Below are positions 31,786-41,251 of a stretch of 64,000 nucleotides of DNA, piece by piece. Origin of the DNA: Podospora anserina. Its lineage: Eukaryota. Within the stretch, counting starts at the first letter, position 1. Every line of letters begins with the position of its first letter. Both the position numbers and the translations under genes were made by a program. Location: positions 2,294,001 to 2,358,000 of the forward strand of contig CM030338.1 in the NCBI GenBank assembly GCA_017654855.1, read 5' to 3'. The notes beneath the pieces were generated by a model that was given only the letters and a program-made list of their open reading frames with translations, made no database searches and was not told the DNA's origin.

Positions 31786-33547
31786 GAGGATTTCCTCAGC
31801 AGTGACGCAGTCACAAAGGTGGTTGATATCGCAAAGGATATTGGTGACAAGGTTGCTGCCGCTACGAAGGAAGTTGAAAAGAAATTTGACGTTTACCTGG
31901 CACAGTTGGAGGAAGAGGCCAGGAGGGCCGAGATGGAAGAGGTGAGGAGAAATGAGGAGTGGTTGCTAGTGGCTGAGGAGAGTCGGAAGAGGAATATGGA
32001 GCCGGCTGGTCATGGTGGCGTCGAGGAAAAGAATCTACCCAAGGGCAAAAAGCACGATCACCAGCAGCCCCCCAAGAAAGATGATCAGTATGAGGAGATT
32101 CTCTAGGATGTGGACGGCCTTGGAGAGGGACCACCCGAAAGCAGCTGTTCGAGTTCGGAATCGTCTGTGTGTTCCTCAACAATACTGCTGTCCGGATCGC
32201 AGGAACTTGATCCCATAACAATGGGGCAAATCCTCCCTAAGAAAAAGGGCACAGACCCACCGGGGCGCGACATGGTCGATAGTTGGGAAGAGCAAAAGCT
32301 GCATGGTGTTTTCAGGGATCAGAAGAACTGCAAGGAATAAACGGGACAGGCGTTTGCTAATTAGAAAAGGACGGGAAACGGGCGTTTGGATTTGGTCATT
32401 ATGCTTCAACGCTACATTTGTAACACAGCACGGAAGGGAGAACAGCAGGTTCATGGTGGCTTTCGACAGTCAGAGGTGGGTATCACGCGCAACATGGCGG
32501 ATTACAGCGAGTCTAGGGATACAACTGAAGGCGCTAGTCATGGGTAGTTATAGATTTTCTTATCAGGTAGGTACTAGGTTCATCGAGATACCCCTTTTTT
32601 TCTTGACTCTTTCTCTGCGAGGAGAGGATACACAATACAATTACTTTCTAATGTTGCGTCTTGGTTCTCTATCTTGTCTCAGTGTTGACTTTGAATTATG
32701 CCTGTCAGCTGGCTGGGTTTCGGTATGCGGTTGGCAGCGGTGTGGACTGTTGTCTGATCCTTTTTACGTTTGATGTGGCAGAGAGCTTTTACAAGACTGT
32801 TCGTGACGATGGTAGGCGGTGCAGAGGGCGCTGCATTTTGTTTTGAGGGGTTTGAGAGAGGTTGAGGATGGCATTCGAGATGGTCGCGGTGATGAGCTGG
32901 ATGAACAAGAGGGAGGAGGCGGGGCAATGGGGGAGGAGGATACGGCTAACACAGATGACCCGGAGGTGAGGAAGGGTAGGGTAGGCGGGCTGGTTTTGGA
33001 TTGGTTCTCTATGTTCATTCCGGTGCTTAGAGTAGTAGGTACTTCATGTCAAAACAATTGAGCCGTTTTCTCTCGTCCAACAACTTTCAATGGCAAGAGT
33101 CTTTTCCATCAGCGGAACCCCATCCTGTTTGGGAGGAGCAGGGCGCTACCAAAGCGTGGAGTCAGAGGTTAATATAGGCAAAGATAGGGAAAGCGAACCT
33201 GAGACTGAATGGGGTGGTTGGATATCAGTTCTTATATATTTCACTCTCATGATCGATTAGGTGCCAGCTATCTTACAGACTGGACAGGTCGTCAGTTGCC
33301 AATGATCTACCTCATTCATCATCTCTTGTTCTTCAGGGGCGGAAAGAGGCACAGGGTTAGGGTTTTGGCAGTCTCTCGAAAATACCCTTGAACCCCCTGA
33401 AAAATAAAGCGCTGTTGGCCCATCAACTCCACTGATCCATTCTCAGCATCTCAACTTGAACATGTCATCACAGCGATTATCAAAGCTCTGTACAGAATGC
33501 AATCTGGTTTGTCCCTCAATCATTCACGGCCATCAGCCGCGCGATAA

Positions 33548-36500
33548 TCAGTGCTTGTGTTTGTGTTCCTCCTCCTTCTCCTCATCCGCAGGGTCCATGT
33601 TGACAGCAGGCCAGTTGGCAAAAGTAGTCTCCCCGATTGTAACCTTGCCCGTAGTGATGGGCGCCGAGCCATTCTTGTACTGCTCATACATCTCGTATAC
33701 AGACACGCTATGAACAGCACCCTTTGTGAGGGAAAGGCCTGCCGATTCGAGGAGGACGCGGTTGGTGTCATTGTCAAGGGGCCTGTGGAGTAGTTAGACT
33801 TCTGCCAGCATTTGTTTTCCGAAAGGAGGGACCAAGGTAGACTTACAAAGGCTGGATGCTGTTCTCAAACACATCGTCCAACACGACAACTACCCCCTTC
33901 CTTAATTGCTCATCGCTCAGATCGGACTCCAGGTCAAGAGTCACCCGCTCGTGGCTGATCTGGGCGTTGGGATAGGCTTTCAGCACGTGATCGAGGTGCA
34001 CCTCGTTCTTGTTACCGTACAGGTAGAACGGCATCTTGTCCGGGTATGTCGTCTCCAAGGCGGCGTAAGACATGGACTCCTTGACTATGACCCTGATGTT
34101 GCTTAGCTCGATGTTGTCCTTGAGCGGCGGTGCGCCCGGCGGGGGTATCCCCACGTCCAGGCGCCACTTGGTGCTGCTGCCTGGTTTGAGCAGGTTCTCC
34201 AGAGTCTCTTTCTCCATGTTGGCAAGTGTGTAAACCACGCCTGGGTTCTCGCTGCGCAGCTTCTTGTAGTACTCCACCACATCCGGGGGGAGATTGCCCG
34301 TGATGACCAGTTGCCAGCGGTGGTTGGCCATGTTGAACATGGGGATGTGCGTGAGGTAGATCTCATCCACGCCCTGCATGACGAAGCCATGAACATCAGG
34401 ACTGAGCTTGTTACGCTTGATGCAGCGTTTGATCCCTTCGAGCGCGACTGCCCTGAAGTCCTTGACTATAGTCTTCATAAAGTCTGGACTCGTGGGCCAG
34501 GGGCTCATTGTGACATTGACGAGGAATCGAAGGTCGCCCCGGGCCAAGTTGATACCGTCGTCGAGTCCCAGGCGGGTCTTGAAAGTACGAAGGCATCTGC
34601 CATAAGCCTCTTCACCGAATACAGATGAGGTCAGGAATAGGGGGCGCGCTGCCACAACATCCTTGTCGGACGAGACGGAAAGCTGTGAGAAGATCCACTG
34701 GTTGAGATAGTTCGCTTCTCCCTTCATATCATGAACCGTTAGTCCACCATTCGCTGTATGTGGAGAGCGACAGTAAACTTACCACATCCTGATTGATGTC
34801 GTCCCCAATCTTGAAGTTGCACGCAAACGCATTGATCATGAGGTCACCAGCCAGCTCACACAAAAGCTTCCATGTCTTCTTGTCCTCGAAAAGCTCTTCG
34901 TTGGTCCGGTTCAAGATCTTGTCTCTGATCAGCTCCTTCTGGGCTTCAATAGCCTCCGGTGACTCGCCTGCCTTCTCCGTCGGAAGACGAATGAGAGGAA
35001 CAACGACGAGGGATTTCTTGAGTGACTCATGTTCGGGGTCAGGTTCCCCCTGTGTCTCATCTGCGCCGGATTCAGATTCTGGGGACGGGGCCATGGTGGC
35101 CCAATAACAGTACAGCTAATCCCATATCTGATTAGAGACCCCGGCGACCAGCAACTTCAAGCTGGAGGGAGTGTTCTGAACGTACCTTTGTGCAGGAGAA
35201 AACAGCCTCACCCAGCAATCTGCCATAACCATCATTGTGCAGACCTATCGTTTTGTGCGTCAACCATGCAGCAGTCGCTGCTGCGCCTGGCTTGCTGCCC
35301 TCCACACCGTAAACACCCATGCTTTCCAAAGCATCACCTTGATGGAAAACAATAGGGCTGGTCCAGGTAACGAGGTATCTCATACGCTGGTCACGGTAGC
35401 AGAGCCCGCCCGCAGGATAATTGATGTAACCAGACCTTTCCCATCGTGTCAGAAACTCTGAAATCGACATAGGCGGGGAAACACTCACTTGTGCGGGTCG
35501 ATAGTGATGCTCTCGGCGTGGCGGAGGTTCCGAAGCTGCTTCACAGTATATGGCTGCAAGGGCATAGCGGGTACATACGGAAGGAAACCGTCTTGGTCCC
35601 CCCGCTCCCTGAGCGTGGCAGCAAAATAGCCTCCCCAGGCGGCATCGCAGTGAATGGCGAAGGAGACGCCTTCGTTCCTTTCAAACTCGTCACGAATCTT
35701 GACAATCTTAGCCACGGGGTCGCAGGCACCGTGCTCAGTAGAGCCGATGATGGCTACCACGCCATAGATTGGGATCTTGGCGTCAACACATTCCTTCAGG
35801 CGCTTTCGAAGGTCGTTGGTATCCATGCGAGCCTCTTCGTCTACATCAACGTCGATAAAGTTGATCGAGCCAATACCAGAGATGGCTACATGTGCAACGG
35901 CCAGTGTTAGAAGGAAAAGAGACCAACGTCGTTCTCAAAGGGCAAGAGAAACTCACCTCCGCCCTTGGGCCAGGAATAATGCTTGGTAGCACTGATCAAG
36001 AACTTCCCAGGTTCAAACCCATACTTTTGCTCAATCACGCTCTTTCCGGTGGTCTGAATGAGGTAGGGTTTGAGAGCAGCCTGCAAGAAAGTTGAAGAGA
36101 TGGAGTACTGCTCAGCCAGAGTTGACGGTATCTCGAGGATGGTGGAGGGCTTGAGATTTAGCAGCTCCTAGGTGGACAACTCTGTGAATAGCTTGGCGTC
36201 CCCTGTGCTGGTTTTGACTTCGAACGCACCAGCAAGAAAATTCAGGGATCCTTCTTCAATCGCTCGTTTGAGAGAGAAGGGATAAAACTTGAGGTTGCGG
36301 ACTAGAGGAGACTGTTAGACACCTTCCCTGTAAATTCAGGGAACAGGGACATTCATACTCGCCCAGATAGCCTCAAGGTTAGCGACGGATCCATCCTGAA
36401 GACAACAAAGCGTCAGTAATTCACAGCAATACAGTGTAGCACGGTTCTAGATATAACTCACACAAGTGATGTGGCCCCAGGAATCTGTTCCATATCCCAA

Positions 36501-36988
36501 CATTCTTGCAAGCTCCTGTCCGACCTCTCTCTCCAGCTTGGTCGTGTGTGGGCTAGCCTCAGTGGCCACATTGTTGGGATTGTACATCATGGCCGTCATG
36601 TCTGTATATTATCAGTAGTCACCTCGGTCAACAGAGAGAATAACAAATCTATCCACATACAGCCAACAATGCTGGAAAGGGCAACATCCATATTCATATG
36701 AGCATTGTATCTGGGAGACCAAAACGGCACCGACTTTGCGGCCAACTCGAGGGAAAGTTTATCGACATCAGATGTCAAAGTCTTGATGCTGTTTTGGTAG
36801 TCTTCCAGTTCCTTCATCCCTTCGGTGATGAACTCGGGGTCTCCGGCATAGAGCGTCTTTCTGGCCTGGGCTTGATGGTTGAGGACGGTGCCAAAGAGAT
36901 CGTGAAGGACCTGGAAATTCTCGGCCCTGGGGCCCAAGAACCAGGAACTGACCAAAGCATGCTGGGTTATGTTGTCGTCGTCCGCCAT
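33548..36988 (-). CDS. Large (~980 aa) group II PLP-dependent amino-acid decarboxylase (fungal non-canonical AAAD/tyrosine decarboxylase-like); about nine exons; contains one in-frame TAG at 36170-36168
   Basis: [104 protein letters not shown] (PLP lysine) and GVEGSKPGA, plus a C-terminal appendage (YLTHIPMFNMANHRWQL). Splice sites are canonical. Confidence 0.9.
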
Positions 36989-37802
36989 GGTCAAGGGCTG
37001 TGTGATGATGGGATGATCAGGGAGGATGGATGCTGTGAAGTAAGGTACAGGACAGAAAGGAATGTGTGAGATTCCGGTCTTGAGCTGGCTGGAAATGGTG
37101 CCCCTTCTTATACCAGCGTTGTTCAGCATGCTGCCACTCGGCACCTGGGCCGTTCACGTCAACCCGATTTTTCTCATGGAAGCATACTTGCCAATCGATT
37201 GATGGATCCGCACACCTGCAGCTGCGGTATATCTTTCCAAGGTCTGAATTTCCATACAGGCAAGCGCGGGACGAGTCAAAAGGCTTCATGGGCGAGAACA
37301 ACGCCGAGGCGGGGTTGATCAGCCATGAATACTTTGATCTGTCATTGCCAGTCAGGTTAGCAGAGGTAGCAATGTCATGGAGTTCCGAGTAGACACCCAG
37401 CTGAAATACAACCCACCGCTACCTAGCGGATGTGGGCTTGCATGGCTTCGAGGAGCTTGGTCTGCCATAGAGCGACTGGAAAGCCTGGAGACGTACTCTG
37501 GGCTATCCCAAGTTTCCAGATAGGAAGTCAACGCTGGCACTAGTAGCCCTTCAGGCAGCTGAGTGATGCATGTTTCCATCTGGCTGCAGCTGGAGTTCTA
37601 GACCTAGGAGTGCGGAGAATAACTGGGGCAACTGACAACCTCAGCTAGCCACCTTCACCTCGTCACTTCCACAGCTAACCATCCACACTTATCACCACCA
37701 CTAAAGCCTCCATTCCCATGCAGCTGTCCTATAAGCGGACCGCACCGCTCTGCACGTCGATCCACTGCCGTCATATATTGGAGAAGATCAAGACCGACCG
37801 AC

Positions 37803-38799: not shown

Positions 38800-41251
38800 T
38801 TAAGCCTTGTTGGCGTACTTCTCACGGAAGTACTTGGCAGCGTTGACCATGTGGGTGAGGGCACCCTTGACCTCGTCCCACTTGCGGGTCTTGAGACCGC
38901 AGTCGGGGTTGATCCAGAGCTGCTCGGGGCGGAGGAACTCGAGCATTTCCTCAATGCGCTGCTTGAACTCCTCCTCGGCGGGAACACGGGGGGAGTGGAT
39001 GTCGTAGACACCGGGGCCGATGTGGCGGGGGTAGGCCTCGTCAATGAAGACCTTGAGGAGCTTGGCATCCGACTTGGAGTTCTCAATGGAGAGGACATCG
39101 GCATCGAGGGCAGCGATGGCGTGGAAGAAGTCCTGGAACTCGGAGTAGCAGAAGTGAGAGTGGATCTGGGTAGAGTCCTCAACACCGGCGGTGGCGAGCT
39201 TGAAGCTGTTGACGGCCCACTCGAGGTAGGCGTCACGCTCAGAGCCCTTGCGGAGGGGAAGACCCTCACGGAGGGCAGGCTCATCGACCTGGATGACGTA
39301 GATGCCGTTGGCCTCGAGATCGACGACCTCGTCACGGAGGGCCAGAGCAAGCTGCTGGCACTGGACGGACTGGTGGACGTCGACACGGGGGAAAGACCAC
39401 CGCAAGCAGGTGACGGGGCCAGTAAGCATGCCCTTCATGGGCTTCTTGGAGATGGAGGCGGCATACTTGGACTCCTTGACGGTCATGGGAGCGGGGCGAG
39501 AGATGTCACCAACGATGATAGGGGGACGGACGCAACGAGAACCATAAGACTGAACCCAGGCGTGGGTGGTGAAGACGTAGCCGTTGAGGCGCTCACCGAA
39601 GTACTGGACCATGTCGTTGCGCTCGGGCTCACCGTGGACGTAGACATCGAGGTCAAGCTCGTCCTGGATGGAGACGGCGAGGTCGATCTCCTTCTTGATG
39701 AAGTTGTCGTACTCCTCGGCGGAGATCTCGCCCTTTGTGAACTTGTTGCGCTGGACGCGAATCTCGCTGGTCTGGGGGAAGGAACCAATGGTGGTGGTGG
39801 GGAAGAGGGGAAGGCTGAGGTGCTTCTTCTGCTGAGCATAGCGGGTGTCGAAACCGGACTTGCGGTTGTGCTGCTCAGGAGTGACGGCAGCCTGGCGCTC
39901 CTTGACCTTGGGGTCGTTGGTGCGGGTGGACTCGGCACGAGCCTTGATGGCGGCGGCGTTGGCATCCAGCTCAGCGCGGACAGCCTCGGGGTTGGTGACA
40001 GCCTTGGCAAGGATGGCAACCTCCTTGACCTTCTCGGAAGCGAAAGAGAACCACTCATAGACATCAGTGGGGAGCTTCTTCTCGCTGGCGAGGGTGTGGG
40101 GGGTGTGGAGGAGAGAGCTGGAGGTGGCAACGATGACACGGTCCTCGCCGAGGGCCTTGATGGCGGTCTGGAGGAGGTCGAGCGACTTGGCGAAGTCGTT
40201 CTTCCAGATGTTTCTGCCGTCAACGACACCGGCAGAGAGGATCTGAGAGGGGCCGAGCTGCTTGATCACAGGCTCGAGCTGCTCAGGGTTGCGGACAAGG
40301 TCGACGTGGATACCCTTGGCGGCAGAGAAAGCGGGGAGGACGTCAAAGTTGTGGACGATGTCACCGAAGTAGGTGGCAACGACGAGGGAGGGGATGGCAT
40401 CACCAGCAGCGGCGAAAGCCTCATAGGCGGGCTTGAAAGCAGCCTTGATCTCGGGGGCGAGATCGAAGACGAGGGTGGGCTCGTCAATCTGGACGGTCTC
40501 GGCACCGGCGGCCTTGAGGGCCTTCAGGAGCTCGACGTAGACGGGGACGAGCTTGTCAAGGAGAGAGATGGGGTTGACGGAAGAGCCACGGTCAGCCTTG
40601 CCGAGGGCAAGGAAAGAGACGGGGCCGACAAGGACGGGTCTGGTGATGATGCCAGCCTCCTTGGCCTCGAGGAACTCGCGGACGGGCTTGGGGTTCTCGG
40701 CAAGGGAGAAGGTCTGGTTGTCCTGGAGGGTAGGCTTGACGTAGTGGTAGTTGGAGTCAAACCACTTGACCATCTCGAGGGCGGGAACATCGACACCGCC
40801 CTTCTGGTGGCCACGACCCATGGCGAAGTACTCATCGAGAGGGGAGAGCTTCTGCTTGGTGTAGCGTTCGGGAACGGCCTGTTGTGGGAGAGGTGGGTCA
40901 GCAAAAAAAGCCCGAGAGCAATTGACCGAGAGAGAGAGAAGCTTACATTGAAGAACTGGATGTGGTCAAGGACGTGGTCGTAGTGAGCGAAGTCGTTGGA
41001 GGGGATGATGTCGACACCGGCATCCTTCTGGATCTTCCAGTGGGCGAGACGGAGTCTCTTGCCCTCCTCGAGGAGAGCCTCCTGGGAGATCTTGTCGGCC
41101 CAGTAAGCCTCGTTGGCCTTCTTGAGGTCACGAAGGACGCCCATACGGCTGTGGGAAAGATATCGAGTTAGCAACCTTATCAGTGCCCAAAGCCGTCAGA
41201 GGAAGGAGCAATTGGAGCTTACGGGAAACCCAGCACGGATGATTGAACCAT
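38800..41251 (-). CDS. MET6: Cobalamin-independent methionine synthase; three exons
   Basis: MVQSSVLGFP|RMG...KWFDSNYHY, PTTTIGSFPQT, HGEPERNDMVQYF, WVQSYGSRCVRPP, QIHSHFCYSEF and WINPDCGLKTR. Confidence 0.98.

Follow-up and report, generated by a model that had tools for sequence, protein, structure and literature searches.

A recent in-frame TAG in a Podospora anserina decarboxylase gene: probably a young null allele, possibly a site of sexual-stage RNA editing

A PLP decarboxylase gene on the minus strand of the window (the whole 64,000-nucleotide stretch of Podospora anserina DNA analysed, from contig CM030338.1) is interrupted at codon 213 by an in-frame TAG (36170..36168), read directly in the sequence as ...ACA GAG TTG TCC ACC TAG GAG CTG CTA AAT CTC.... 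Does this stop mark a gene that has recently been lost, or is it corrected in the mRNA, as supposed in the original prediction of sexual-stage A-to-I editing that restores a tryptophan? The gene model comprises 979 codons in nine exons, separated by eight GT..AG introns (Table 1), and the TAG is its only internal stop. The P. comata model starts instead at another in-frame ATG, 47 codons further upstream, which would here give a protein of 1026 aa. An alignment of the window model with the P. pseudoanserina orthologue, also 979 aa long, needs no gaps and shows 960 of 979 residues identical. In the spliced translation WAIRNLKFYP precedes the stop, while HYSWPKG and the DPHK motif (residues 413-416) follow it; there are no frameshifts, and all splice sites are kept. 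The gene thus proved to be as first described: a single TAG in an otherwise intact PLP decarboxylase, with family-like sequence on both sides, the catalytic lysine downstream and no other lesion.

Table 1. Features of the decarboxylase gene, in positions of the window
Feature	Position	Strand	Evidence
In-frame TAG, codon 213; candidate edited adenosine 36169 (plus-strand T)	36168..36170	-	sequence; same letters in contigs of 4/4 runs
Exon 1, ATG 36988..36986; other in-frame ATG 47 codons upstream	36661..36988	-	joint 36601/36661 in 4/4 runs
Exon 2	36462..36601	-	gene model and run contigs
Exon 3 (37 nt)	36359..36395	-	gene model and run contigs
Exon 4, carries TAG; encodes IRNLKFYP...TELST*ELLNL...HYSWPKGG	35957..36301	-	one unbroken piece in contigs of 4/4 runs
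Exon 5, PF00282 core, DPHK at its end (D413..K416; 35499..35489 + G at 35435)	35489..35885	-	Pfam E=6e-11; translation
Exon 6	35186..35435	-	gene model and run contigs
Exon 7	34783..35115	-	gene model and run contigs
Exon 8	33847..34721	-	gene model and run contigs
Exon 9, including stop codon TAA	33548..33782	-	joint 33781/33846 in 4/4 runs
Single-base difference: window AAG (Lys343), GAG (Glu) in contigs of 4/4 runs	35709	-	run contigs

Exon 5 alone matches PF00282 with 42.1 bits against a gathering cut-off of 27 (E=6e-11), and the sibling orthologue P0151, to which the window protein is identical at 960 of 979 positions, scores 77.5 bits. Residues 9-919 of P0151 align to residues 19-916 of 6EBN, including the C-terminal extension (E=7e-215), and ITIDPHK at residues 410-416 of the spliced translation aligns to the same motif in that structure. 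In group II decarboxylases the lysine of DPHK binds PLP. Judged by sequence, the gene encodes a group II PLP decarboxylase of the ncAAAD-like kind, with 6EBN as its nearest solved structure. 6EBN is a noncanonical aromatic amino-acid decarboxylase, which we take to be the calcium-activated enzyme of Psilocybe cubensis. It shares with P0151 the WELLNL segment, DPHK and the long C-terminal extension, whereas the window gene has its stop at the Trp of WELLNL. An aromatic amino-acid substrate and activity of the Trp-213 form are putative, by family likeness. The bacterial tyrosine decarboxylases 5HSI/5HSJ and 7CWX align over the N-terminal ~500 residues (E about 1e-80 to 1e-78) but, at about 620-634 aa, do not have the C-terminal half of the fungal proteins. 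It is this likeness that accounts for the automatic label 'L-tyrosine decarboxylase' on the fungal proteins.

Transcription of the decarboxylase gene continues, with correct splicing, and the transcript carries the UAG. Contigs from four public runs of 24 listed, each from a different study, reproduce all eight exon joints exactly at the modelled intron borders, and each of the four contains exon 4 (35957-36301) unbroken and without a differing letter. Transcript contig word depths range from 16 to 53. The word share in runs X13 and X14 (0.76 and 0.75, against 0.77) falls short because of incomplete 5' ends, with no change at the TAG; six runs outside the four (X15-X20) have a share of 0.99. 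Further, mycelium is reported to contain the 3' fragment PODANS_7_8100 as a regulated transcript. At 36169 the consensus is the unedited A in all four runs, a consensus of contigs that drop minor variants and are of unspecified tissue and stage.

Since the joints and an intact exon 4 recur in the contigs of four runs, the stop cannot stem from faulty assembly or sequencing, and no intron removes the codon; either would have undone the original prediction. The probability that the stop is an artefact, whether of sequencing, of assembly or of a wrongly modelled exon, is negligible: contigs that depart from the window at 35709 agree with it at the TAG, every intron border is confirmed, the independent reference annotation of strain S mat+ is itself fragmented, and open reading frames ending at residue 212 occur on 7 + 1 contigs among the matches listed. 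Rather than editing, the difference at 35709 most likely reflects a SNP in the strain of the window; Glu343 is also present in the S mat+ fragment P0250 and in all five siblings.

The stop is confined to one species lineage. All five annotated siblings (P. comata, P. pseudocomata, P. bellae-mahoneyi, P. pseudopauciseta and P. pseudoanserina) read STWELLNL, and the window gene falls inside the P. anserina species complex in the tree with a support of 100. The Trp in the siblings together with this placement means that the stop is derived and young. By this comparison TGG became TAG only recently, and the TAG is not an edited site kept across species. Conservation of the TAG in related genomes, which the original prediction had raised, is absent, with Trp in the five siblings and TAG at none of 80 metagenome loci.

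Several haplotypes of the P. anserina lineage share the stop. The S mat+ annotation contains only fragments of the gene, of 113 aa and 371 aa, the latter identical to the window at 369 of 369 residues. An open reading frame (P0259) stops exactly at residue 212 on 7 contigs, among 15 listed of the 20 members of its 90% cluster (a 979-aa read-through frame may be among the other five), and a second haplotype (P0263, with A204T) also stops at residue 212, on one contig among the matches listed. The contigs behind these frames are roughly 3.7-3.8 kb long. The partner frame P0258 restarts at residue 241 and is found on 9 contigs among the matches listed. At least three haplotypes thus carry the stop, namely that of the window, that of the Glu343 contigs and P0263, and it is not a private lesion. 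Eight amino-acid changes are private to the window lineage, every one of them past the stop; the siblings have between 1 and 11 (protein counts only). The eight columns concerned are variable ones, with the ancestral residue in only 8-44% of 70 other homologues, and by simple arithmetic the excess over P. comata (8 vs 3) is not significant. The end branch of the window gene is the longest in the complex, yet near that of P. pseudocomata (0.0083 vs 0.0079).

Across the wider family the residue lost to the stop is strongly conserved. Trp occupies the codon-213 column in 134 of 137 representative homologues and in 77 of 98 longer ones, and the codon is TGG at 78 of 80 metagenome loci, the other two being one CAC and one alignment slip. 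The homologue sequence STWELLNL given in the original prediction was correct. A search for shorter pieces of the reading frame yielded no candidate for a TAG-split gene in other fungi. The ORF fragments P0103, P0127, P0135 and P0113 start two residues past the Trp column, for which a stop or an intron are both possible; the fetched loci include none that encodes them (best match 71%).

The nearest Sordariomycete clade departs from this otherwise near-invariant Trp: it has E, Q, K, S, H or D there, residues that lie next to TAG, and not to TGG, in the code. Among the tree rows, the 23-row clade that holds the window gene never has Trp at this column outside the P. anserina complex: Triangularia has Q, and the 16-row sister clade has E (9), H (3), D (2), Q (1) and S (1). 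K, E and D occur as well among fragmentary homologues. A single step separates E, Q, K and S from TAG, and one more leads to H and D, while R, G, L and C, one step from TGG, are in no column tally.

The RNA around the candidate site reads CACCU[A]GGAGCU, which puts U at -1, G at both +1 and +2, and A at +3. Published descriptions of fungal A-to-I editing give U at -1 as the strongest determinant and list these three downstream letters among the preferred ones, so the editing-friendly neighbours noted at the outset do agree with the reported preference. The predicted fold is less obliging. In the ±30-nt fold (61 nt, the span of the published analysis) two helices flank the unpaired A, which is in no hairpin loop, and in the ±50-nt fold (101 nt) the A forms a bulge. 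A weak 5-nt hairpin loop (-4 kcal/mol) holds it in the 31- and 41-nt folds alone, and shuffled sequences do as well (z +0.26 and +1.03). A local hairpin presenting the A is thus unsupported beyond the 41-nt span, though a hairpin loop at the edited A is a published preference and not a requirement.

Sexual-stage editing has been reported in the Sordariales relatives Neurospora crassa and Sordaria macrospora, and P. anserina ADAT genes are reported to rise during perithecium development. On these grounds sexual-stage mRNA editing would be expected in P. anserina as well, by analogy. No catalogue of A-to-I editing for P. anserina or Podospora was found in the literature searched. In Fusarium graminearum, 323 of 1,559 natural UAG stops in edited genes are edited (preprint, bioRxiv 059725). 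Given this proportion and the favourable context, some read-through to Trp in perithecia is quite possible. Reported levels of fungal editing average about 15%, so detectable editing need not restore function.

The closest parallel is the premature-stop-corrected (PSC) pseudogenes of F. graminearum, 71 genes that include PUK1 and AMD1 (Qi et al. 2024, PMC10776026). As that source describes them, they resemble the window gene in having one in-frame TAG in an otherwise intact and transcribed gene, an edit to Trp and U at -1. The ancestral codon here is TGG, also reported as the commonest origin in the F. graminearum set (PMC10776026). The two differ in that the F. graminearum sites are described there as mostly conserved across species, whereas the window TAG is found in one species lineage, and in that theirs is demonstrated editing, whereas the window gene, which would encode a metabolic enzyme, is a candidate. 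The words 'decarboxylase' and 'pyridoxal' do not occur in the main text of either PMC10776026 or PMC4817773, nor does 'decarboxylase' in that of bioRxiv 059725.

We consider it probable that the TAG is a recent loss-of-function allele, a young null or incipient unitary pseudogene. A TGG>TAG nonsense mutation would have arisen recently in the P. anserina lineage, in the gene for a ~980-aa noncanonical aromatic L-amino-acid decarboxylase, and ordinary translation would end after 212 residues. As the stop comes before the PLP-binding lysine, the DNA-encoded product cannot be a decarboxylase; from this we infer loss of function and the absence of meaningful rescue. The lesion is absent from the sister-species orthologues, as in a unitary pseudogene, and the family is patchy in Sordariales, with paralogues (P. 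fimiseda and Cladorrhinum sp. PSN259, for example, have two copies each), which makes the loss of one copy plausible. Lineage-specific nonsense pseudogenes of the P. anserina complex likewise have one disabling point mutation and intact orthologues in the siblings; many genes are reportedly dead in P. comata. The window gene is unlike such pseudogenes in that its transcript is abundant enough to assemble and correctly spliced, and its stop stands in an editing-friendly context. Against a null allele, too, are the absence of any decay besides the stop (no frameshifts, no lost splice sites), the presence of fully spliced contigs in all four runs where a unitary pseudogene might have lost expression or splicing, and the sharing of the stop by at least three haplotypes. 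These same features, namely an intact, expressed and spliced gene, a shared stop and the C-U-A-G-G-A context, favour restorative editing, in which a perithecial Tad2/Tad3-type deaminase would turn UAG into UIG, read as Trp. The full-length decarboxylase would then be made only or mainly in sexual development, and vegetative cells would hold only a 212-aa stub. The edited codon would give back the residue of all five siblings and nearly all representative homologues, the E/Q/K/S/H/D column of the nearest clade fits repeated passage through a tolerated TAG, and the reports from N. crassa, S. macrospora and the P. anserina ADAT genes point the same way. Nevertheless, we hold such editing to be possible but doubtful. 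The TAG is in none of the five siblings, whereas the F. graminearum sites are described as mostly conserved (PMC10776026), and a TAG that is not conserved is a young change of the kind that ordinary nonsense mutation makes. Further, no A>G appears in the consensus of the four runs (contigs that drop minor variants, stage unspecified), the A lies outside a hairpin loop in the 61- and 101-nt folds, the literature searched yielded no P. anserina catalogue, and an edit at the reported mean level need not rescue function.

It is improbable that the stop is bypassed without editing, by UAG read-through, by a functional 212-aa N-terminal fragment or by downstream re-initiation. The transcript does persist at the depths given above despite an early stop with five introns after it, and the long downstream frame (residues 241-979) is still open. 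However, a product begun after codon 213 would be without the N-terminal third, a region that aligns full-length to 6EBN, and the first ATG after the stop is at residue 304 (P0250); the stub, for its part, is without the PF00282 core and the DPHK lysine. To our knowledge, UAG GAG is not a recognised read-through context. A broader suggestion, which we regard as unlikely, is that codon 213 is a recurrent 'TAG hub' in Sordariomycetes, with the P. anserina lineage caught at the TAG stage and making full-length enzyme only in sexual development. Editing to Trp in fruiting bodies of a UAG in the conserved ...ACN-UAG-GAG-CUN... would make TGG>TAG tolerable, and the tolerated TAG would have served in related lineages as a repeated stepping stone to E/Q/K/S and then to H/D.

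If the TAG is a plain null allele, the gene is an ordinary young pseudogene, and the finding mainly explains the fragmented P. anserina reference annotation. A TAG hub, if true, would be without precedent both in Podospora and among metabolic enzymes. If perithecial editing restores the Trp, the codon would be a premature-stop editing site of very recent origin whose orthologues in five siblings keep an intact TGG, a natural near-isogenic contrast for asking whether such sites begin as tolerated ('harm-permitting') mutations or as adaptive stage switches. It would also link aromatic monoamine synthesis with the development of fruiting bodies in a model amenable to genetics.

The in-frame TAG can be read at 36170..36168 of the minus strand, within the sequence text quoted in the original prediction, and forms codon 213 of a group II PLP decarboxylase gene. 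The gene model rests on introns with canonical GT..AG borders and CTAAC/CTGAC-like branch sites, and a ninth exon was added because what first looks like the stop, TAA at 33845-33843, shares bases with a GTAAGT donor. Codon 213 is the sole internal stop of the resulting 2,940-nt CDS (979 codons plus stop), and the gene is otherwise intact, as had been claimed. An alternative in-frame ATG lies 47 codons upstream of the modelled start (window 36989-37129, minus strand) and is where the gene models of P. comata and of P. pseudocomata begin (1026 aa); the choice between the two leaves the TAG finding unaffected.

Exons of the decarboxylase gene in window coordinates
Feature	Position	Strand	Basis
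Exon 1	36988-36661	minus	gene model
Exon 2	36601-36462	minus	gene model
Exon 3	36395-36359	minus	gene model
Exon 4 (carries TAG)	36301-35957	minus	gene model
Exon 5	35885-35489	minus	gene model
Exon 6	35435-35186	minus	gene model
Exon 7	35115-34783	minus	gene model
Exon 8	34721-33847	minus	gene model
Exon 9	33782-33548	minus	gene model

Exon 5 scores 42 bits with Pfam PF00282 (Pyridoxal_deC), whose cut-off is 27, and the PLP-lysine motif DPHK occupies residues 413-416, downstream of the stop as predicted. The near-identical Podospora pseudoanserina orthologue P0151 can be aligned across residues 9-919 with PDB 6EBN (E=7e-215), whose molecule name is 'non canonical aromatic amino acid decarboxylase'; the N-terminal half of P0151 also aligns with two tyrosine decarboxylases from bacteria, 5HSI and 7CWX. 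A protein of 212 residues would be missing the entire catalytic core. The adjoining single-ORF gene (38803-40962, minus strand) encodes a cobalamin-independent methionine synthase (PF01717, E=1e-150; PF08267, E=1e-82).

A search for public runs gave 24 coded ones, every one in the form of assembled contigs. The share of sampled words found was 0.99 in six runs and 0.75-0.77 in 14, the latter being about what our own arithmetic gives for a spliced copy of the stretch. Contigs of four runs from four coded studies (X13, X14, X3, and X1) were aligned onto window 33400-37200, those of X3 and X1 reaching past the upstream ATG to 37200. In each run a contig skips exactly the eight modelled introns (64, 61, 70, 53, 71, 57, 66, and 59 nt long, each bounded by CT..AC when read on the plus strand) and covers exon 4 in one piece with no other letter. 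From this we infer that the contigs are spliced transcripts, the kind of run being guessed; the consensus transcript carries UAG. The unbroken exon 4 in all four runs rules out an intron removing the TAG, in line with the predicted lack of one, and the shared letter at 36169 rules out an assembly error. The initial sequence observation is thus confirmed in all checkable details. Relative to the window, all four runs share a single change, 35709 T>C (plus strand), which turns AAG (Lys343) into GAG (Glu) at the mRNA level. The five sibling species and the S mat+ fragment P0250 likewise have Glu343, and the site is best read as a G>A SNP confined to the strain of the window rather than as editing; it shows that this strain is not the one behind the transcripts.

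The nearest protein is QC764_708110 of P. pseudoanserina (98% over exon 4); the window's spliced translation matches it at 960 of 979 residues, with no gaps and Trp opposite the stop. Its 90% cluster has 20 members, and our statements rest on the 15 listed. TELSTWELLNL is present in P. comata, P. pseudocomata, P. bellae-mahoneyi, P. pseudopauciseta, and P. pseudoanserina, and TAG occurs in none of 80 metagenome loci; the stop is not conserved across these sequences. P. anserina S mat+ is represented among the listed members by fragments only: PODANS_7_8110 (113 aa, 112/113 identical to the window) and PODANS_7_8100 (371 aa, 369/369 identical), the latter named in a single paper among transcripts down-regulated in snf1 mutant mycelium. 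On contigs of ~3.7-3.8 kb, ORFs end exactly at residue 212, one identical to the window (P0259, seven contigs) and one with the single replacement A204T (P0263, one contig), while a partner ORF (P0258, nine contigs) begins anew at residue 241. A tree of 56 full-length proteins nests the window gene in a six-member complex (support 100). This placement, with the sibling Trp, indicates that the stop is derived and came from one G>A substitution (TGG>TAG) inside the P. anserina lineage. At least three haplotypes carry it: those of the window, of the Glu343 transcripts, and of P0263.

The STWELLNL expected of homologues proved correct. Trp stands in 134 of 137 representative homologues covering the column (the rest two E and one K), 77 of 98 longer database homologues, and 25 of 28 exon-sized fragments, with TGG in 78 of the 80 metagenome loci (otherwise one CAC and one alignment slip). 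In the 56-protein tree, built by a quick method with SH-aLRT as its sole support measure, every non-Trp row falls within one 23-row clade (support 99) that includes the window gene, and all 33 rows outside have W. Triangularia there has Q and the P. anserina complex W (plus TAG); the 16-row sister clade has E (9), H (3), D (2), Q (1), and S (1). Across homologues P0152-P0193, P0002, P0022, P0119, P0264, and P0281, the column at 36168-36170 exchanges its otherwise near-invariant Trp for E/Q/K/S/H/D in this single Sordariomycete clade alone. Two Gaeumannomyces species differ (P0152 His, P0155 Ser; at least two nucleotide changes apart), which points to unusually fast turnover in their clade. Four exon-sized ORF fragments (P0103, P0127, P0135, and P0113) start exactly two residues past the column (MLNL.../LLNL...). 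Such starts would fit other fungi having a stop at this codon, or else an intron there; no encoding locus for them was among the loci retrieved.

The original prediction was that sexual-stage A-to-I editing restores Trp, a live alternative that we regard as rather unlikely. The expected context is present: in CACCU[A]GGAGCU the U at -1 is, in published work, by far the strongest determinant, and G, G, and A at +1 to +3 are the letters preferred in F. graminearum. A preprint (bioRxiv 059725) reports perithecial editing of 323 of the 1,559 natural UAG stops that edited F. graminearum genes have. The odd residue spectrum of the sister clade favours editing too: E, Q, K, and S lie one nucleotide step from TAG, H and D one further (beyond Q/E or Y), and R, G, L, and C, single-step neighbours of TGG, are absent from every tally. 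Fragment P0138 may have R, its alignment stopping short of the column. This spectrum matches that described around premature-stop editing sites by Qi et al. (PMC10776026), and TAG may have served several times as an intermediate at codon 213 in this clade; the spectrum also fits plain relaxation of the position via viable Gly/Arg intermediates. Editing is weakened by the stop not being conserved and by the lack of a hairpin loop: a 61-nt fold, the size chosen in the published analysis, puts the A between two helices, and a 101-nt fold makes it a bulge; only when 31 or 41 nt are folded does it enter a 5-nt hairpin loop, with -4 kcal/mol and no advantage over shuffles. All four contig sets read A at 36169, which is neutral or against editing, as contigs suppress minority variants, the runs may or may not stem from fruiting bodies, and published fungal editing levels average ~15%. 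Our literature search found no published A-to-I catalogue for P. anserina; the papers examined that name both this species and A-to-I editing bring up editing by citing other fungi.

The window lineage has eight private amino-acid replacements (one being the strain SNP) plus the stop, and its siblings have 11, 5, 3, 2, and 1. All eight lie downstream of codon 213 (chance of none upstream ~0.14 by our own calculation) and at variable columns, and G:C>A:T transitions account for seven of the nine changes. Neither counts, positions, nor types separate recent relaxation from continued constraint. Both readings are of a known kind, nonsense pseudogenes or premature-stop editing, the latter described for 71 F. 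graminearum genes (PMC10776026). The most likely reading, which we consider reasonably probable, is that the TAG marks a nonsense allele of recent origin in an enzyme family that is dispensable and rich in paralogues, with transcription kept.
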